A stretch of 64,000 bases of DNA, from the NCBI GenBank assembly GCA_011682695.1, contig JAACED010000012.1, forward strand, positions 43,518 through 107,517, in the 5' to 3' direction. Both the position numbers and the translations under genes were made by a program. The notes beneath the pieces are model-generated. The model worked only from the letters and a program-made list of their open reading frames with translations, was not told where the DNA came from and made no database searches. Shown in pieces: positions 7,457 to 63,467 of the stretch. The number at the start of each line of letters is the position of its first letter. The stretch's first letter is position 1. Source of the stretch: Gammaproteobacteria bacterium (GTDB lineage Bacteria; Actinomycetota; Acidimicrobiia; Spongiisociales; UBA4744).

Positions 7457-9109
7457 GTGGCGAAATACGTGTTCGTAACGGGTGGTGTGGTCTCCAGTCT
7501 TGGGAAGGGGATCACCGCATCCTCCCTTGGAAGACTCCTCAAAGCACGCGGTCTGCGCGTCGTCAATCAGAAGCTGGATCCGTATATCAACGTTGATCCG
7601 GGAACGATGAACCCCTTCCAACATGGCGAGGTGTTCGTCACCGACGATGGTGGCGAGACCGACCTCGACCTCGGGCACTATGAACGTTTCACCGGTGAGA
7701 ACCTCCGGCGGGATTCCAACGTGACCACTGGTTCGGTGTACCTGTCCGTTATTCAGAAGGAACGTCGTGGTGATTACCTCGGCGGCACCGTGCAGGTTAT
7801 TCCACACATCACAAACGAGATCAAATCGCGGATCCGACGAGTCGGTGATCGCGACGACATCGACGTAATCATCACGGAGGTGGGCGGCACCGTCGGCGAC
7901 ATCGAGAGCCTGCCGTTCCTGGAAGCGATCCGCCAACTACGCAAGGATCTCGGAGCGCACAACACCGTGTATGTGCATGTGACGCTCGTTCCCTACATCT
8001 CGGCCTCAGAGGAACTGAAGACCAAACCAACGCAGCATTCGGTGGCTGAACTGCGAAGCCGCGGCATCCACCCCGACGTGATCGTCATCCGCTCCGACCG
8101 CAAGGTCGGGTCCGACGCGATTCAGAAGATCAGCCTCTTTTGCGACGTCGATCGTGAAGCCGTTATCAACGCTCTGGACGCGCCCAGCATCTATGAAGTC
8201 CCCTTGGAGCTGCACGAGGCCGGCCTCGATGACGTGATCACCAGACGCCTTCACCTCGAAACACCGCCTCCCGACCTCGCTGACTGGCGCTCGATGGTGG
8301 AACGTGCGCGAAACGCCACCCGACTCGTCACGATCGGCCTGGTGGGAAAGTACGTCGATTTGCCGGACGCGTACCTGTCGGTCGTCGAGGCTCTGCGGCA
8401 CGCCGCTGCCGGTTCGGACTCGAAGCTGGATCTGAAGTGGATTCCCAGCGACGACATGGGTGGCCTTCTTGCGCCTGAGCATCTTGCAGGAGTGGATGGC
8501 ATCGTGGTCCCCGGCGGGTTCGGGATCCGAGGAATCGAAGGAAAGATCTCGGCCATTCGTTATGCACGAGAGAACGGTATTCCGTTCCTCGGCTTGTGCC
8601 TCGGATTGCAGTGCGCGGTCATCGAATTCTCCCGATCCGTTCTTGGGCTGACGGACGCGGACAGTGCCGAATTCAATCCGACCACGACGAACCCGGTCAT
8701 CGACCTGATGGAAAGCCAGCAGGATGTCTCGGACATGGGTGGAACCATGCGCCTCGGTCTCTACCCGGCCAAGCTCGCAGAAGGGTCTCTCGCCCGCCGC
8801 CTGTACGAGCAAGAGCTGATCTACGAGCGCCATCGGCACCGTTATGAGTTGAACAATCGCTACCGCACGGACCTCGAGAACGGCGGCATGCGCCTCTCGG
8901 GCACGGCCCCCGACGACTCGCTCGTGGAGATCATCGAGCTTCCTGGGCACCCATTCTTCATCGCGTCGCAGTTCCATCCCGAGTTCAAGTCGCGACCGGA
9001 TGATCCACATCCGTTGTTCCTCGGCCTGATTCGCGCCGCGCTCGCGAGGAGGGCAATGCCTGGGGCCGCCGTTGAGACGGTCGGCGTTCCGGAGCCGCAA
9101 AGCCGGTGA
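7457..9109 (+). CDS. pyrG: CTP synthase
   Basis: [19 protein letters not shown]... synthetase domain, GLCLGLQ glutamine amidotransferase active site. GTG start. Confidence 0.95.
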
Positions 9110-25380: not shown

Positions 25381-26150
25381 AGACCCTCCAACTCCGCGAT
25401 GTCAGTGCGTACTACGGCGACTTTCGCGCCATCGCCGATGTCGACCTCACCCTCCAACCTGGGGTGATCACCGCCCTCATCGGGCCTTCCGGTTGCGGAA
25501 AGTCGACCCTTCTGCGTTCTCTGAACCGGATGCACGAGTTCGTCCCGGGGGCACGCATCGAAGGCGAGATCACCCTTGACCGCGAGGACCTGTACGGCCC
25601 TTCGGTGTCACCCGCCGAGGTGCGCCGTGTCATCGGCATGGTGTTCCAGCGACCCAACCCTTTTCCAACACTGAGCATCTTCGACAATGTCGCCGCCGGT
25701 CTCCGGCTCGACGGCGGGTACACGCGTGACGAGTTCGACGACCGGGTCGAATGGGCGCTGCGTTCCGCCCACCTTTGGAAGGAGGTCGAGCATAAGCTCC
25801 ACGCCCCGGGAGCATCACTCTCCGGAGGTCAGCAACAGCGCCTCTGCATCGCCCGGACGATCGCCGTTCAACCCGCGGTGATCCTCATGGACGAACCGTG
25901 CTCGGCACTCGACCCCATCGCGACGCTCCGCATCGAGGACCTGATGCGGGAGCTCAAGGAGGACTACACCATCGTCATCGTGACCCACAACATGGAACAG
26001 GCGGCCCGAGTGTCCGACTTCACCGGGTTCCTCGTGATCGAGAAGGCCGCAGACCCCGGCCGTCTCATCGAGTTCGGCGAAACGAGCCAGATCTTCACGA
26101 CTCCGGCCGACGAACGCACAGAGCGGTATATCTCGGGGAAGTTCGGATGA
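25377..26150 (+). CDS. pstB: Phosphate ABC transporter ATP-binding protein PstB (copy 1)
   Basis: Walker [10 protein letters not shown], signature LSGGQQQR, Walker [13 protein letters not shown]-loop VTHNM. ATGA overlap with pstA. Confidence 0.9.
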
Positions 26151-55344: not shown

Positions 55345-57159
55345 TCAGGCATCCACTTCGGAGTTGGCGGACACGAGCAAGATGACGGTGTCGCCCGGTG
55401 CAGCGTCGCGCAACGCCCGCGTGTTGCCACTCTCGCTGATGAGCACTTTCCCGTTGGGTTTGACCACGAACAGCACCGCAGCTGCCCGCTCGCCCAGTCC
55501 GGCGGCGCCCAGACCCTCAGGATCGGTATCGAGCTTGGTGCGGTGAATCTCCCCGCCGTTGTCGAGAAGATGGAGCAGCGCGTTGTAGCTCCAGTCCGGT
55601 CCGAAGAGGAGGCGGCCACCCAAGTCGGCCCGAGGATGTGAGTCGATCCCGGCGCCCCGACGCCGAGGCACCAGCTGGTATGTCTCGGCACCGCCAAAGG
55701 TGCCGGCGTAGCGGCCGGTGGCAAGGGTGTTGACATCGTCGTTCGGAGTCAGCGCCAGAAGCCGCCCGATGCCGGACAGATCGAGGTCGAGATCGACGTC
55801 GCGGGCGAGGATATCGCCGTAGTAGGTGCGCAGGCCGGCCATCCAGGCGTCGTCGTGGTCGGCGCGGTTGGTCGTGGCGAGCACGACGTCCACACCCGAG
55901 TTGGCCAGTGCGTCCGCGATTGCTCGCTCCACCGGGCCGGCGCCCAGGATCAGCGCACCCTCCTGGTGCCGATCCGCCAGTCCGAGTCGGCGGGCGAGCG
56001 GGCCCATGCCAAGCCCGTAGATGGTGACGGTCGCGACGATCACTGCAAAGACGAGCGGCGTGATCTCGTCGCCGCCGGGAATGCCCTCGCGTTGGAGCTC
56101 GAGCGCAAACACCGATGCGATGGAGGCAGCGACGATACCGCGAGGAGCTACCCCGGCGAGTAGTACTCGCTCCTGCCACGACAATCGCGACCGCCATGTC
56201 GCGACCGCCACTGCCACAGGTCGCGCAACGAGCACCAGAGTCAGCACCAGCGCGATCGCTGCAGGTAGGTCGACTTGGAGCTGCTCAGCCGAGAGGCGGG
56301 CGCTCAGAACGATGAACAGGACCCCTATCAGCAGCACTCTCAGCACTTCGGAGAACTGGACTATCTGTTCGGTGCGGATCGTTTTGTGGTTCGCGAGGAC
56401 CAATCCGAGCACGGTCGTGGCGAGCAGGCCGGACTCGGCGGCGAACATGTCGGCGACGATGAAGGCCAGAAGAGCGACACTCACACCGAACAGCGACAGC
56501 AGATGCTCGGGAACCCAGTGGCGCCGAAGGGCAGCAATCGCACCGAGGGCAACGAGCCCTCCGACCGCGACTCCCGCAAACGTGAACTGGGCAACCTGGC
56601 TGATGACCTCGCCCGGCGTTGCGGCGACCCTGCCGACAAGGAACACCTCGAATGCCACCACGGCCACCAGCGCCCCGATCGGGTCGATGAAGATGCTCTC
56701 CCACTTGAGGATCGAACTGACCGAGCGCCGCGGCCGGACGTGGTTGAGAAGAGGCCCCACGACCGTTGGTCCCGAAACCACGAGAATCGACCCGAGCAGC
56801 ACGGCCAGACCAGGCTTGAGATCGGTGAAGGCGAGGGCGGTCACCGCTCCAACCGCCCAGGTGACGAGCACCCCGACGGTTACCAGCAGCCACAGCACCT
56901 GTTGTTGACCGGCCATTTCCCTCATACGAAGGCTGAGGCCTCCCTCGAAGAGGATGAGACCGACTGCGATCGAGACCACCGGAGTGAGGAGGTCTCCCAT
57001 CAGATCATCCGGATTGATCAGCCCAAATGCGGGGCCGATGAGGAATCCCGTCAGCAGCAGTGGAAGAATCGCCGGTACCTGGATACGTTCTCCCAGCCAA
57101 GTGACCGCAAACGCGAGAACGACTATGCCTCCCAACTGCACTATTGGATCCTCGAACAC
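55345..57159 (-). CDS. Cation:proton antiporter (CPA1/NhaP-type) fused to a C-terminal RCK/TrkA-like domain
   Basis: About 12 TM Na_H_Exchanger core, then LILGAGPVERAIADALANSGVDVVLAT (Rossmann-like) and a TrkA-C-like tail. GTG start. Confidence 0.8.
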   Translation of the reverse strand: MFEDPIVQLGGIVVLAFAVTWLGERIQVPAILPLLLTGFLIGPAFGLINPDDLMGDLLTPVVSIAVGLILFEGGLSLRMREMAGQQQVLWLLVTVGVLVTWAVGAVTALAFTDLKPGLAVLLGSILVVSGPTVVGPLLNHVRPRRSVSSILKWESIFIDPIGALVAVVAFEVFLVGRVAATPGEVISQVAQFTFAGVAVGGLVALGAIAALRRHWVPEHLLSLFGVSVALLAFIVADMFAAESGLLATTVLGLVLANHKTIRTEQIVQFSEVLRVLLIGVLFIVLSARLSAEQLQVDLPAAIALVLTLVLVARPVAVAVATWRSRLSWQERVLLAGVAPRGIVAASIASVFALELQREGIPGGDEITPLVFAVIVATVTIYGLGMGPLARRLGLADRHQEGALILGAGPVERAIADALANSGVDVVLATTNRADHDDAWMAGLRTYYGDILARDVDLDLDLSGIGRLLALTPNDDVNTLATGRYAGTFGGAETYQLVPRRRGAGIDSHPRADLGGRLLFGPDWSYNALLHLLDNGGEIHRTKLDTDPEGLGAAGLGERAAAVLFVVKPNGKVLISESGNTRALRDAAPGDTVILLVSANSEVDA

Positions 57160-57811
57160 CAGCAGAGCCTTCCAGGGGACGCCTTGTGGATGGGGATTCT
57201 ACGGTGCCCCAGGAGTTTGTACCCCAGATCCCACCGGACCCCCAAGGCAACATCCGGCCGGCCTTGTCGATCTCCTCGAGCCCCCGGGCCGACCGGTAGG
57301 GGGGCGCGCCTCGTCACGGCGGCACCCACATGCCCGATGCCCGTCCACGAAAGCGGAGCACATGCAGCCTCCACCCATCACTGCCACCGCGTTCGACCTG
57401 GCCGCCCGGACACCGGCAGTGGGGGCGAGCGCGAGATCGAGTCGGAGCCACTGTGCCTGCAACGCCCCATTCCTGGCCCGTTGGACAAATACGTCGCAAC
57501 TCGACATAACGTGGATTATGGGCGTTCCGCCAATGCATCGGGTTTCACCGTCCAGACCCGCACCGTTGCCAGGCCTGGTCCGACCCAGACCTTCTCGCAC
57601 CGCCGAGCCGACGGCTTGCCCACTGTCTTGACGTTCGCCGGCTGCAATCGACGCGCGGCCCCGTGTCCGTCCCCGCGTTGTTCGCAATCGCGCCCATGAT
57701 CCCTCCGACGTGTCGTAACGACCTGTCACCACACGCCCCAGGCAGGCCTCGGCCGGCTCGGTGCCCCGTATCGCCATCGTCGGCCCGCAGTGTCCCATTC
57801 GGGCCCCCAAA

Positions 57812-57826
57812 CGTCACGTGACGGAT
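57812..57826. promoter_or_regulatory. Palindromic motif CGTCACGTGACGGAT (copy 1), about 130 nt upstream of trxA
   Basis: Perfect 12-bp palindrome CGTCAC|GTGACG plus GAT. The same 15-mer recurs at about 59963. Coordinates +/-1. Confidence 0.4.
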
Positions 57827-57955
57827 TGGTTTGTCGATGCGGCGCTCGGCGTTGCACAATGGTGGGAATGGAAGTGGCGCTTGCGGCGTTAGCTCCACAG
57901 AAGGGTACAATATACCCCCTCGGGGTATCATGATCACAGAACTTTTGGAGAGATA

Positions 57956-58330
57956 ATGGCAACCGTCACACTGACCAAGGACAACTTCGAGGACACCGTC
58001 ACGAACAATGATATGGTCCTCGTCGACTTCTGGGCCGAATGGTGCGGTCCCTGCAAGATGTTTGGACCCGTGTTCGAGAAGATGTCGGAGCAGTACCCCG
58101 ACATCGTCTTCGGCAAGGTCGACACCGAGGCCCAGCAGGAACTGGCCGGCTACTTCAACATTCGCTCGATCCCGACTCTCATGGTCTTTCGTGAGAAGGT
58201 GATCCTGTTCTCGCAGGCGGGAGCGCTTCCGGAGCCGATGCTCGAGGACCTGATCACTCAGGTTCGCGACATCGACATGGAGGATGTCCACCGCAAGATC
58301 GAGGAAGAGTCCGCCCAAGCCGACGCCTAA
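57956..58330 (+). CDS. trxA: Thioredoxin
   Basis: WCGPC active site; full-length Trx fold. Leader contains TACAAT (-10-like) and an ATACCCC-ctc-GGGGTAT hairpin, then GGAGAG. Confidence 0.9.
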   Translation: MATVTLTKDNFEDTVTNNDMVLVDFWAEWCGPCKMFGPVFEKMSEQYPDIVFGKVDTEAQQELAGYFNIRSIPTLMVFREKVILFSQAGALPEPMLEDLITQVRDIDMEDVHRKIEEESAQADA

Positions 58331-58484: not shown

Positions 58485-59624
58485 GTGGCTGGACGCGACC
58501 GCGCGATCATGCTGTTCACGACCAAATATGATGCCAAGCCAACGGGACTCGTACGCGTACCCGGCCGCGTCAACCTGATTGGCGAGCACACGGATTACAA
58601 CGGTGGATACGTGCTCCCGATGGCCATTGAGAGAGCCATCTGGATAGCGTTTCGACCCCGTAGCGATCGGAAGGTTTTCCTCCGTTCCGAAGCCTTCGTC
58701 GATGAGGCACGGCTTGATCTCGACGAACTCACGCGCGGTGAGGGTTGGGCCGAGTACGCCAAAGGTGTGGCATGGGCCATGGAGAAGGCGGGCAACCGTC
58801 TCCAGGGCTGGGAAGGAGTCATCGCGAGCGATATCGCCATGGCCGCAGGTCTCTCCTCTTCGGCTGCCTTCGGCATCGCCATCGAAGTGGTCTTTGCCGA
58901 GGTCTCGGACCTCGGTTGGGATCCCGGTACGTTCGCACAGCTTCAGCAACACTCCGAGAACGAGTGGGTCGGGGTTCGCAGCGGCATCATGGATCCGCTC
59001 ATCGTGACGGGTGCCCACAAGGGCCATGCGATGCTCATCGATTGTCTTTCTTTCAAAGGTGTCCACGTCCCGATTCCGCCCGAGGCGGCGATCGTCGTCA
59101 TGGACACCGGAACCCGCAGAAACCTGATTGAGGCCGGGTACAACCGGCGACGATCTCAGTGTGAAGTCGCCGCGGCGAAGCTGGGCGTCACGACACTGCG
59201 AGACGTCACGATGGCCCGGCTCAACGCCCACAAGAACGACTTGGGAGAGTCTCTGTACGAATGTGCAAAACATGTTGTGACGGAGAACGAACGCACGCTC
59301 GCCGCGAAGGATGCACTGCTTCGGGGTGCCCTCGGAGAGTTTGGAAGCCTCATGAACGAAAGCCACACTTCACTGCGCGATTCCTTTGGAGTCTCCAGCC
59401 GCCCGCTCGATGCGATGGTGGAGGCTGCGCAGTCCACACCCGGGTGTTTTGGAGCCCGTCTCACAGGCGGTGGCTATGCCGGTGCTGCCATCGCCCTCGT
59501 CACACGCAAGTCGAGCGAGCGCTTCATTCACGCCGTAGAGGACGCGTTCCATGAGGCGACGGGCCTCCAGGGCCACTGCTACGTCGTCGAATCGGCGCAT
59601 GGGGCAAGCTTCGAGCCCATTTGA
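58485..59624 (+). CDS. galK: Galactokinase
   Basis: Galactokinase signature PGRVNLIGEHTDYNGG, GHMP ATP motif GLSSSAAF. GTG start 7 nt after GGAGG. Confidence 0.85.
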   Translation: MAGRDRAIMLFTTKYDAKPTGLVRVPGRVNLIGEHTDYNGGYVLPMAIERAIWIAFRPRSDRKVFLRSEAFVDEARLDLDELTRGEGWAEYAKGVAWAMEKAGNRLQGWEGVIASDIAMAAGLSSSAAFGIAIEVVFAEVSDLGWDPGTFAQLQQHSENEWVGVRSGIMDPLIVTGAHKGHAMLIDCLSFKGVHVPIPPEAAIVVMDTGTRRNLIEAGYNRRRSQCEVAAAKLGVTTLRDVTMARLNAHKNDLGESLYECAKHVVTENERTLAAKDALLRGALGEFGSLMNESHTSLRDSFGVSSRPLDAMVEAAQSTPGCFGARLTGGGYAGAAIALVTRKSSERFIHAVEDAFHEATGLQGHCYVVESAHGASFEPI

Positions 59625-59956
59625 GCGGCTTTGGGCTCCATCCAGAAGGCGGCGAGCGGTTCGGCAGCGCCGCGCAACCACTCGAAAGCCTCCCGATACG
59701 CATCACCGTCTACTCCAGCCGTCTCCAGATCACCTGCGACGTCCTCCAGAGCGGTCTCGAGACCGTACAAAAGCCCCTGAAGCTCCTCGAGGTCGCGGCG
59801 CGACACCAGAACTTCGTCCGCACCGAGACCATGTGCGTCCGCCAGTTTCCGCGCGATGTGCGCCTGCTGTCGACAACTCTGCTTGCAGTAGCGCCTCGGC
59901 CTTCCCGGGCCCGCGCGTCTGGGCAGCACTCCCCCACACCACCTGCACCGGTTCAT
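59579..59956 (-). CDS. Small C4 zinc-ribbon protein (hypothetical, candidate regulator)
   Basis: MNRCRWCGGVLPRRAGPGRPRRYCKQSCRQQAHIAR… (C-x2-C-x17-C-x3-C), then an acidic helical C-terminal half. Start set to the ATG 6 nt downstream of palindromic motif copy 2. The track ORF extends 32 codons further upstream, across the palindrome. The 3' end overlaps the galK 3' end by 46 nt (convergent). Confidence 0.5.
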   Translation of the reverse strand: MNRCRWCGGVLPRRAGPGRPRRYCKQSCRQQAHIARKLADAHGLGADEVLVSRRDLEELQGLLYGLETALEDVAGDLETAGVDGDAYREAFEWLRGAAEPLAAFWMEPKAAQMGSKLAPCADSTT

Positions 59957-59962
59957 ACGTTT

Positions 59963-59977
59963 CGTCACGTGACGGAT
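59963..59977. promoter_or_regulatory. Palindromic motif CGTCACGTGACGGAT (copy 2), immediately upstream of the zinc-ribbon gene
   Basis: Identical 15-mer to copy 1, in the same orientation on the plus strand. Coordinates +/-1. Confidence 0.4.
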
Positions 59978-60401
59978 GCTACCGGGTATACGCATGCATG
60001 TCGTCGGTACCCGATGCGCGATGGCGATGATCATCCCTACCCCTCGCCCCATCGCTCACGCCCGTACAGGAGTTCACGAACATTCCCCAGGATCCTATGC
60101 GGCCGAGTCTCGTTCGGTTCCCTCCAGAAGGCGTCGAGCGACCTCGAGCGCAGTGGCCTCGTCGCTTGCCGCGTGCGCCACCGGACGTTCGATCCACCGA
60201 GCGATCTGTTCGGAACTCGGATGATCGTGAGCTGTGAGAGCAGCCGCCAGATCGTCGGTCCAGAACCATCGCATTGCGCACCTCCGTGGGATGAGTGAGG
60301 GGATGAGTGAGACGATCTCACGGTACCGCCCATGTCAAGAGTGCTGGACCTGGGAAAACACAGCCGTGCAGTTCCACCCGCGTATGTGCGCAGATCGACG
60401 C

Positions 60402-62128: not shown

Positions 62129-62452
62129 TCACGGAACGAGCGCTGTCTCATCAAGGCGGACGGTCACTTGGTCTGCGATGATCTCGAGACGGCTTCGCCG
62201 GCCCTGCACCCCGTCCCAGAATCGTCGTTGGATCGCTCCGACGACCCAGAGACGAGAACCGGCCGCAGGGGCGTCTTCGACCAATTCCTCCGGCGGATCC
62301 CACAACGTGACGGGCAGGACGTCGACGCGTCGTCGGGGCTGCTCGCTGCGAACCGTGAGGAGATAGCGAACCAGACGCGTCCCCGAATCGAAAGAGCGCA
62401 CTTCGGGCGGGGCGGCCAGGCGGCCACAGAAAACTGCAAGATTGAGGTCCAT
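62129..62452 (-). CDS. SSB-like OB-fold protein lacking the acidic C-terminal tail
   Basis: MDLNLAVFCGRLAAPPEVRSFDSGTRLVRYLLTV…SRLWVVGAIQRRFWDGVQGRRSRLEIIADQV aligns with the SSB OB fold. 107 aa with no DDDIPF-type tail. Start at the internal ATG (codon 35 of the track ORF). Confidence 0.55.
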   Translation of the reverse strand: MDLNLAVFCGRLAAPPEVRSFDSGTRLVRYLLTVRSEQPRRRVDVLPVTLWDPPEELVEDAPAAGSRLWVVGAIQRRFWDGVQGRRSRLEIIADQVTVRLDETALVP

Positions 62453-62543
62453 GACGGTGCCTTTCCGGGGAAGGCGGGAGGTGATGGTCACCGTAGGGCC
62501 GGGGTGTGACATTTCTGGTCGACGAACGACGTAAAGTGTCCCC

Positions 62544-63467
62544 ATGACTGACATACGTGCCGTTGAAATCGGTGACCACGTCTACGCAATCGACGCTTGG
62601 ATGGAAGGCCGGTCCGAGCGTCTCGCCTGCTATCTCTTCGACACTCCTGAGCGAGTGCTCGTCGAAGTTGGCCCCTCTGCAACACTCGGGCATCTGATCG
62701 AAGCACTCGACGAGCTTGGGGTGGATGATCTGGCGGCATTCGTCGTCACTCATATCCATCTCGATCATGCGGGCGGGGCCGGGCAGATGGCGAAGCGATA
62801 CCCCAATGCAAAGGTGGGAGTGCACTCTCGGGGAGCAAGGCATCTCGTACACCCGGAACGCCTGTGGACTTCGGCCATTCAGGTCTTCGGAGAAGAGTGG
62901 CTCACCTCCGAATGGGGTCCCATGGAGCCTGTGGATTCCGAACGCATAATGGTTCTCGACGAGGGAGACCGAGTTCCCCTGGGCAACGGAAGGTACCTCG
63001 ACGTCATGTACACGCCAGGGCACGCGAAGCACCATGTCGTCTACCAGGATTCGGACGGCGGCGGCATGTTCGTCGGTGACGCCCTCGGGCTGTGCTATCC
63101 ACACGGGCACTTCGTTCAACCCGTGACGCCGCCGCCGGATTTCGATCCCGACGCGCAGATCGCACAGATGAGGAGAATGGCGCAGCGTCGTCCGACTTTC
63201 CTCGGGTTTGCCCATTTCGGCCCGCGTTACGACATAGAAACCACACTCAACGAAGCTGAAGAACGCTTGCGCGAATGGGTGGAGGCGGTGTCGACATTCT
63301 CGGGAATGTCAGATGAGGCAGCGGGCGAAGCCCTCAGGGTGTGGACGGCAGAGAAATATCGTGCCTTTGGCTATCCGGAGGATGCGATCGCCTCGTACGC
63401 CGAGAAGACCAATTGGCCGATGCAGGCCGCCGGGATCAGGCGATGGCTAGCTGCACAGGAAGACTGA
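62544..63467 (+). CDS. MBL-fold metallo-hydrolase
   Basis: HIHLDHAGG motif, additional His/Asp ligands (…TPGHAKHH…). Confidence 0.75.
   Translation: MTDIRAVEIGDHVYAIDAWMEGRSERLACYLFDTPERVLVEVGPSATLGHLIEALDELGVDDLAAFVVTHIHLDHAGGAGQMAKRYPNAKVGVHSRGARHLVHPERLWTSAIQVFGEEWLTSEWGPMEPVDSERIMVLDEGDRVPLGNGRYLDVMYTPGHAKHHVVYQDSDGGGMFVGDALGLCYPHGHFVQPVTPPPDFDPDAQIAQMRRMAQRRPTFLGFAHFGPRYDIETTLNEAEERLREWVEAVSTFSGMSDEAAGEALRVWTAEKYRAFGYPEDAIASYAEKTNWPMQAAGIRRWLAAQED

Follow-up and report, generated by a model that had tools for sequence, protein, structure and literature searches.

A chromosomal SpdA-like zinc-ribbon gene and its sps palindrome linked to a predicted dif site in Actinomycetota

The locus

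The stretch of DNA analysed here (the window: 64,000 nucleotides of contig JAACED010000012.1, assembly GCA_011682695.1, from a member of the class Acidimicrobiia) carries on its minus strand a small zinc-ribbon gene whose product is a relative of SpdA, a protein known from Streptomyces conjugative plasmids, together with two copies of sps, the palindrome bound by SpdA2 of plasmid pIJ101, and a predicted dif site. The surrounding genes, for GGT, galK, trxA and Na+/H+ exchanger, make up a chromosomal setting. An earlier note on this DNA had described a minus-strand open reading frame (ORF) ending at 59579 and starting at ATG 59956 (MNRCRWCGG...), transcribed convergently into galK, and in both respects it was right: the frame is present, and it shares a 46-nt 3' overlap with galK (58485-59624), which recurs identically in the related locus L001. 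The features of the locus, in window coordinates, are listed below.

57499..57526, minus strand: dif, predicted XerC/XerD site, AACGCCCATAA-TCCACG-TTATGTCGAGT, 28 bp, 23 of 28 positions identical to the predicted Frankia alni dif
57809..57826, no strand: orphan sps palindrome, core 57812-57823, 138 nt upstream of the trxA ATG and 305 bp centre-to-centre from dif
59579..59968, minus strand: SpdA-like zinc-ribbon gene, 129 amino acids (aa) from GTG 59968, with ATG 59956 as codon 5
59648..59800, minus strand: coding part of the C-terminal acidic helical hairpin, residues 57-107, a putative dimerisation element
59825..59956, minus strand: coding part of the SpdA-type DNA-binding domain, residues 5-48, with zinc ribbon, GPGRPRRYC loop and basic helix CRQQAHIARKLA
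59960..59977, no strand: sps palindrome at the gene start, core CGTCACGTGACG at 59963-59974, with the GTG start codon at its centre
59981-59976, minus strand: -10-like hexamer TAGCAT, 7 nt upstream of the GTG, in leaderless promoter geometry

The zinc-ribbon gene and its product

Counted on the translation, the zinc-ribbon ligands of the window protein are Cys8, Cys11, Cys28 and Cys32, which gives the spacing C-x2-C-x16-C-x3-C and not the C-x2-C-x17-C-x3-C read previously. The zinc-ribbon ORF is a genuine conserved gene; the cysteine positions and the reading frame, on whose conservation the earlier note had let its proposal depend, are both maintained across homologues. In alignments the N-terminal block is nearly invariant (RCxWCG...GPGRPRRYCxxxCRQQAHxARKLAxAHGLG), with G22, R23, C28, C32, R33, Q34, A39 and R40 as near-invariant positions, and it is followed by a conserved helical region closing at W-I-E-P-R. 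The C-terminal hairpin is conserved throughout the zinc-ribbon family, and the tail of the protein that is encoded antisense to the galK 3' end (the last ~16 residues) is conserved in the closest relatives only. An AlphaFold2 model built with a 77-sequence alignment, with a predicted local distance difference test score (pLDDT) of 85, places the ribbon at residues 6-29 and a helix at 30-45, followed by a linker and the hairpin at 57-84 and 88-107. The proposed architecture of a Cys4 ribbon with a helical C-terminus is thus retained, whereas the proposed likeness of its spacing to TraR/DksA or CGNR fingers is not.

Searches for a named family gave little. The window protein has no significant Pfam, NCBIfam or PHROGs family, and no Pfam or NCBIfam match even at E<=10. 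Membership in zf-CGNR or zf-dskA_traR, for which the earlier note had proposed a profile search, accordingly fails: the TraR/DksA C4 finger is spaced C-x2-C-x17-C-x2-C against x2/x16/x3 here and zf-dskA_traR gave no match at E<=10, and for the CGNR finger there is no Pfam zf-CGNR match and the window motif is C[RK]Q. Only 3 of 77 family members each showed matches to zf-FCS and Zn_ribbon_recom, all of them below threshold (best zf-FCS E=0.023). A sequence search of the PDB with the family profile returned nothing under E=0.047, the best Foldseek match of the model was PhiC31 integrase (E=0.69), a word-indexed search with a 43-aa Zn-ribbon alignment found no scoring match, and no phage or plasmid sequence matched the window protein in tblastn.

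The sps palindrome and its relation to SpdA2

The palindrome CGTCACGTGACGGAT is present in exactly two copies in the window, at 57812-57826 and 59963-59977, as noticed earlier, and the observed match count was reached in 0 of 100 dinucleotide shuffles. Full-text literature search for the palindrome, the one route that led to SpdA2, revealed that its 12-bp core, CGTCACGTGACG, is letter for letter the sps of Streptomyces plasmids. According to Thoma, Sepulveda, Latus and Muth (2014, PMC4170104), SpdA of Streptomyces conjugative plasmids is conserved only in the N-terminal 38-50 residues, which carry a zinc-finger motif, and spdA genes always come with one to three copies of the 12-bp palindrome, one of which overlaps the start codon in pSVH1. 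In electrophoretic mobility shift assays, purified pIJ101 SpdA2-His shifted sps DNA while mutated sps was not shifted, and the protein also bound the pSVH1 sps variant with one extra central base; further, spdA2/sps influences segregational stability, and SpdA homologues were said to occur on Streptomyces plasmids only (PMC4170104). Plasmid SpdA also contacts the FtsK-like translocase TraB and Spd proteins in two-hybrid assays (PMC4447253). The operator-like character that had been ascribed to the palindrome is therefore well founded, since it is a real site of the protein-binding type, identical to the SpdA2-bound sps.

The protein shows the matching relationship. The pIJ101 record (L208) carries spdA2 as an ORF without annotation, which we located at 7970-8377 on the minus strand, and the two sps copies of that plasmid, with their flanks, read TTTCGTCACGTGACGGAA and TTTCGTCACGTGACGTAT, the flanks being shared with the window family. 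The window protein aligned with pIJ101 SpdA2 in BLASTP at E=4e-10 with 42% identity over 59 aa, and hhalign matched the family profile to SpdA2 with a probability of 97.3% (E=2e-11) over 39 columns covering the ribbon and helix; the C-terminal parts of the two proteins are unrelated. SpdA2 itself has no Pfam family, and its tblastn search in PLSDB retrieved 23 records, 22 of them Streptomyces plasmids, in which it is hypothetical or unannotated. Because the same predicted DNA-binding domain occurs with the same cognate site, we regard the window gene as a chromosomal relative of spdA, and with high confidence predict its product to be an SpdA-type sps binder. The half-sites of natural sps copies are separated by 1, 2 or 3 bp, which would fit a DNA-binding domain flexibly linked to a dimerisation module and agrees with the tolerance of SpdA2 for a central insertion.

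Scanning metagenomes for the 16-mer palindrome was unusable for defining a regulon, as 111 of 125 sites lay in unrelated sequences (chance or other repeats). Among these, the 16-mer TTCGTCACGTGACGAA occurs in the unrelated metagenome contigs L124, L147, L092, L098, L099 and others within a repeated element (GTGACGAACAAGTTCGTCACGACGTGG...). Its copies in L124 and L147 are 111-112 bp apart and look like a different repeat family resembling repetitive extragenic palindromic (REP) elements, while L143 (7655-7784) has two copies 114 bp apart with flanks unlike those of that REP-like repeat.

Start codon and promoter

The earlier note had the start codon of the gene abutting the palindrome. The core does end 6 nt before ATG 59956 and no Shine-Dalgarno sequence precedes that codon, but the ATG itself is probably not the start. 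The frame is open 5' of it (...I-R-H-V-T-K-R-M-N-R-C), with V encoded by GTG 59968-59966 in the middle of the palindrome, and a protein initiated at this GTG would begin M-T-K-R-M-N-R-C, in agreement with the 'MTK' N-termini found in homologues. We compared start sites across 82 species-level loci, consisting of the window, L001, L002 and L005-L084. The pattern T[TA]TCGTCAC|[GA]TGACGAAA stands just upstream of the protein match in 58 of them, or 60 when slightly relaxed, and in 59 of those 60 the codon at the palindrome centre (GTG in 50 loci, ATG in 10) is in frame with the ORF. The linker after M-T-K varies in both length and sequence, with the first Cys at residue 7-35, so the conservation of MTK would reflect the DNA site and not the protein. 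Furthermore, TANNNT is found at -12..-7 (+/-1 nt) in 53/60 loci, against 0.0009 per random position. We conclude that GTG 59968 is more likely the start codon than ATG 59956 and that the mRNA is, from the geometry of the start codon, probably leaderless, which would account for the missing Shine-Dalgarno sequence. A sigma-70 consensus promoter scan found none.

Many database entries of the family are N-terminally short (P0069-P0071, 80 aa; P0027, P0001) and begin at internal Met or Leu codons, e.g. MARKLA, probably because gene callers miss the leaderless GTG start. With its start codon exactly on the operator dyad, the gene is a clear example, among leaderless genes, of a layout that misleads gene callers.

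Linkage to dif

The conserved element noticed around the second palindrome, gCC-CATAATC-NN-CGTTATGT-cAAGT, matches dif. On the minus strand of the window (57526-57499) it reads AACGCCCATAATCCACGTTATGTCGAGT, to be compared with the dif predicted for Frankia alni, CACGCCGATAATGCACATTATGTCAAGT (Kono et al. 2011, PMC3025954). The profile from 68 loci, nnCGCC[CG]A[TG]AA - T[CG][CT]N[CG]G - TT[AC]TGT[AC]AAGT, has an 11-6-11 organisation with conserved arms and a variable 6-bp centre, and one clade carries a compensatory arm change, from CATAA/TTATG to CAGAA/TTCTG. The dif-like site is single-copy in the window, where none is expected by chance, and an Rfam search of the window and of 57150-57960 detected only tRNA, elsewhere in the window. 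ORFs with high GC content at third codon positions to the left of dif number 24 on the plus and 6 on the minus strand, which is what terminus convergence predicts but is crude and weak evidence, and counts of motifs like the FtsK-orienting polar sequences (KOPS) were too few for interpretation. Right after dif in L001 (7625-7685) there are three tandem units resembling the XerD arm (TTATGTCAAGTAGTGACGGCT), which may be repeated XerD half-sites or the result of slippage.

Across the loci, the conserved genomic partner of the gene is dif and not trxA. Among 83 loci, 68-69 have a dif-like site, and 48 of these have it directly past the stop codon of the Zn-ribbon gene, usually on the opposite strand. 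Of 64 loci with both sps and dif, 62 have their closest sps 50-484 bp from dif (median 380 bp), and each locus has one Zn-ribbon ORF only. The linkage persists when the gene is displaced: of 21 loci in which the gene is more than 1 kb from dif, 19 have an orphan sps 50-400 bp from dif, the exceptions being L048 and L074. This includes the clade of the window, in which galK and trxA lie between gene and dif and the orphan sps is 277-343 bp from dif (the window itself, L001, L002, L005-L008 and L207). Some loci have no sps at the gene start: L205 has two copies 308 and 515 bp from dif, and L062 and L068-L070 keep, in the dif region, the centre-insertion form TTTCGTCAC-N-GTGACGAAA. There are no credible ORFs starting at orphan sps copies, and the 300-bp spacer from orphan sps to dif in the window contains no recognisable Zn-ribbon pseudogene. 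Since orphan sps copies are kept near dif without the gene, the linkage of sps with dif is not explained by the position of the gene alone.

Distribution

In a collection of 5.8 billion proteins we found 79 homologues down to 37% identity, all unnamed and none with a Pfam domain. Scanning one genome per species gave at least 112 relatives, and all 80 loci kept belong to Acidimicrobiia, barring a few seemingly mis-binned ones; among metagenome contigs with the palindrome, 11 also carry dif, 350-420 bp away. The module extends further. On one of these 11, a 738-kb Thermocrispum-like contig (L103), a 110-aa homologue is encoded between sps and a perfect Frankia-type dif, and this homologue has 641 relatives in the protein collection, all hypothetical, from Thermocrispum, Saccharomonospora, Amycolatopsis, Prauserella, Actinokineospora and other Pseudonocardiaceae. 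In Saccharomonospora marina and S. xinjiangensis, sps falls within the first codons (S-R-D-E), as it does in plasmid SpdA genes, and dif follows the stop codon. By this comparison, the module of sps, gene and dif appears to be older than Acidimicrobiia.

Searching exhaustively with HMMER and the 43-residue domain, we obtained 1199 representative clusters at E<=0.001. Some of these proteins (P0092, P0109, P0123, P0202 and P0205; 244-349 aa) carry 4-5 tandem copies of the SpdA-type Zn-ribbon, have no Pfam domains and bear uninformative names. In a metagenome contig (L117, Ga0137392_10169257) the palindrome at 295-310 lies on the start codon of a minus-strand ORF with an M-T-K start, in which the Zn-ribbon is fused to methyltransferase-like sequence (..ILEPCAGTGNF..), seemingly a DNA methyltransferase; the ORF is cut by the contig end.

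Several observations concern the neighbourhood. A short gene of the SSB family (OB-fold; ~107-141 aa) is conserved in all of the window clade, within a few kb of both the Zn-ribbon gene and dif (62129-62554, minus strand, in the window; 2607-2930 in L001; 1446-1775 in L002; 2787-3113 in L207). Between the GGT and Zn-ribbon genes, the window has a 59-aa minus-strand ORF at 60095-60274 (MRWFWTDDLAAALTAHDHPSSEQIARW...), which is conserved in L001, L002 and L005-L007, where it is also a called gene, and has no family match save a weak PHROG (E=0.02). In two Pseudonocardiaceae genomes, tyrosine-recombinase genes of the Phage_integrase family are located 2-3 kb downstream of the Zn-ribbon gene (L210, 5122-6117; L211, 3909-5183), and these could be Xer paralogues or elements integrated at the terminus. 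Elsewhere in the window the 19-mer CATCGTCATCGTGACCCAC is present twice, at 25974 and 26822, 848 bp apart, which suggests a local duplication or a repeated gene segment.

Discussion

Based on the shared domain, the shared site and the conserved arrangement at dif, we lean slightly towards the reading that the window protein is an SpdA-like sps binder, probably repressing its own gene, which marks the dif region and may have a role in terminus segregation or dimer resolution. In the mechanism we propose, the Cys4 zinc ribbon and basic helix would recognise sps (CGTCACGTGACG), with the dimer probably held together by the C-terminal helical hairpin. The sps at the gene start would span about -9 to +9 of the gene's own promoter, so that bound protein would block transcription; we have moderate confidence in such leaderless autorepression. 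At the dif-proximal sps, the protein would form a fixed nucleoprotein mark with a part in segregating the terminus or resolving dimers; it might, for instance, touch the FtsK/XerCD machinery or set its position. That sps, gene and dif form one conserved module in both Acidimicrobiia and Pseudonocardiaceae makes it most likely that the protein builds a mark beside dif, and the contact of SpdA with TraB, together with the effect of spdA2/sps on stability, makes a terminus role linked to FtsK/XerCD the most economical guess. Our confidence in the function at dif, which draws on this comparative support, is lower. The sequences themselves show the homology to SpdA2, the identity of palindrome and sps, the conserved arrangement at the start codon and the linkage of sps with dif; DNA binding by the window protein, its dimerisation, leaderless transcription with autorepression and any action on FtsK or Xer are what we infer.

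Several facts weigh against this reading. Binding by the chromosomal members is deduced from homology over 39-59 residues, the outer arms of the palindrome in the window are imperfect (ATC vs AAA), the symmetric covariation of outer palindrome positions is weak (p about 0.03), and changes in the protein helix did not clearly go together with those in the operator. The dif site is a prediction, and GC skew across the 64-kb window is uninformative. Moreover, no fixed architecture is apparent: sps is on the XerD-arm side of dif in most Acidimicrobiia and on the XerC-arm side in the window clade and Pseudonocardiaceae, and the two may be as close as 50 or as far as 480 bp apart. The genomes of Amycolatopsis carbonis and Crossiella retain the gene, but neither sps nor dif lies in its vicinity; no dif-like site was found in pIJ101; and the orphan sps of the window is also upstream of trxA, where a transcriptional role is possible.

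A competing view, which we consider rather unlikely, makes the protein a conventional transcription factor that controls its own gene and a small regulon peculiar to the lineage, here maybe including trxA, and takes its adjacency to dif as passive synteny without functional meaning. In Acidimicrobiia sps sits on the start codon, in Saccharomonospora within the first codons and in L103 just upstream of the gene, and this constant association with the 5' end of the gene is what autoregulation alone predicts; the position of the orphan copy 138 nt before trxA is kept in the clade, and some genomes retain the gene without a nearby dif. Passive synteny is, however, hard to reconcile with orphan sps copies that stay 50-400 bp from dif beside unrelated genes in 19 of 21 gene-displaced loci, with L062 and L068-L070, where the gene start has lost what the dif region still carries, or with the extra sps copies of L021, L039 and L205, which are not at promoter positions. 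Nor does trxA lack a proximal promoter/operator-like element of its own: upstream of its ATG (57956), at 57906-57928, a TACAAT hexamer is followed by the inverted repeat ATACCCCCTCGGGGTAT, and similar repeats precede trxA in L001 (TATACCCCTAGGGGGTA) and L002 (TATACCCCCAGGGGTAT). We take the repeat in the window to resemble CsoR/RcnR-family operators. The proposal of the earlier note, a redox- or zinc-sensing Cys4 regulator tied to thioredoxin or else a small TraR/DksA-type factor associated with RNA polymerase, we judge very improbable. It could appeal to the four conserved cysteines, to the location of the gene two genes from trxA and to the palindrome copy upstream of trxA; yet the adjacency to trxA is confined to the window clade and elsewhere the neighbours are unrelated, leaving the thioredoxin idea without comparative support, nothing was found to support an RNA-polymerase-associated factor, and there is no TraR/DksA or CGNR match. 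The Cys pattern is that of a structural treble-clef/FCS-like ribbon, which the DNA-binding SpdA2 has in common.

The dif site is a known integration hotspot, and one can picture the locus as the domesticated or decaying remnant of a mobile element integrated there, either of the type of integrative mobile elements exploiting Xer (IMEX) or plasmid-derived, with the spdA stability gene serving the element. The variable gene content beside dif, the tyrosine recombinase genes close to the Zn-ribbon gene in L210 and L211, and the previous record of SpdA/sps from Streptomyces conjugative plasmids only (PMC4170104; 22 of the 23 tblastn matches) would agree with such an origin. We nevertheless find it improbable, given that no locus has more than one dif-like site or more than one Zn-ribbon ORF, that the flanks are metabolic or housekeeping genes with no rep, traB or spdB-like neighbours, that the module, in single copy, has been conserved in two actinobacterial classes with a divergence that follows taxonomy, and that the C-terminal hairpin is kept in the family, unlike the divergent C-termini of SpdA. 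Least credible to us is a role of the palindrome at the RNA level, as a hairpin serving attenuation, termination or translation, in place of one as a DNA site for a protein. The inverted repeat is perfect and in a few species a copy sits just past the stop codon between convergent genes, as a hairpin might; but the left arm is upstream of the +1 predicted from the conserved -10 hexamer and so would be untranscribed, a U-tract is missing, orphan copies turn up whatever the context, and the identical sequence is a demonstrated protein-binding site (PMC4170104).

Taking the reading of an sps-bound mark at dif one step further, sps and the SpdA-like protein could be an ancestral actinobacterial terminus system that recruits, orients or licenses FtsK/XerCD or tethers the terminus to the division site, with plasmid SpdA/sps as a copy taken over from it, by which plasmids would connect to this host machinery by way of the FtsK-like TraB. 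We put this forward tentatively and would sooner doubt than assert it; if true, its functional analogues would be MatP/matS or the accessory factors of cer and psi. The chromosomal, dif-linked SpdA/sps pair is new: we found no paper describing such a variant, and for Actinomycetota the literature open to search yielded no DNA-binding protein tied to dif or the terminus, nor do we know of one. For about thirty years SpdA/sps has been familiar from Streptomyces plasmids, with no agreed function and thought to be restricted to plasmids. A chromosomal counterpart by dif in two actinobacterial classes provides a testable hypothesis tying SpdA-type proteins to FtsK/Xer-dependent segregation and makes the SpdA-like protein a candidate dif-associated factor in Actinomycetota.

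Comparison with known systems

The closest known relatives are SpdA and SpdA2 of pIJ101, pSVH1, pSN22 and pJV1, which share with the window protein the N-terminal Cys4 ribbon and basic helix (CxWCG...GxGRxRxYCxxSCRQ.A..AR) and a comparable size (117-163 aa for SpdA, 129 aa here). On both sides the 12-bp target is CGTCACGTGACG, its flanks are alike (TTT/AAA), it falls within the protein's own gene or at the 5' end of it, and site variants with an insertion at the centre exist. Unlike SpdA2, which has no such hairpin, members of the window family have a conserved C-terminal hairpin and are chromosomal, single-copy and dif-linked. On Streptomyces plasmids SpdA is encoded next to rep or spd genes; here the host belongs to Acidimicrobiia and the neighbours are chromosomal.

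The C-x2-C ... [YF]C-x3-C spacing is also that of FCS/TRASH treble-clef fingers (zf-FCS, YacG-like) and of the ribbon of large serine recombinases, and UniRef names some Pseudonocardiaceae homologues after FCS/TRASH or the recombinase zinc ribbon. No match reaches the curated threshold, however, and in the window protein the hairpin follows the ribbon and is not inserted in it. In its predicted regulation the gene resembles lambda cI transcribed from PRM and the C proteins of restriction-modification systems, in which the operator overlaps or abuts the +1 of the regulator's own leaderless transcript (PMC2632904). Those regulators are helix-turn-helix proteins, and the start codon exactly on the operator dyad distinguishes the present case.

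For a mark near dif, one comparison is with the MatP/matS system, the organiser of the Ter macrodomain of enterobacteria. MatP is a small dimeric ribbon-helix-helix protein with a coiled-coil/helical C-terminus, its palindromic sites (matS, consensus GTGACRNYGTCAC) flank dif, and there are ~23 copies over 800 kb. The window protein would likewise be a small, dimeric, site-specific DNA binder with a helical C-terminus and palindromes by dif, and the half-sites GTGAC/GTCAC share letters with sps. The proteins show no homology, though, the half-sites are reversed, and no more than one or two copies of sps were found in the few kb around dif. The second comparison is with the accessory sequences of plasmid Xer sites, cer with ArgR/PepA and psi with ArcA/PepA, which abut the XerC side (about 180 bp), are used on plasmids and control when and in which direction recombination occurs. 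As in cer and psi, a protein-binding site is positioned within a few hundred bp to one side of the XerC/XerD core; in contrast to them, sps is 50-480 bp away, on either side, at a chromosomal dif, and the proteins are unrelated.

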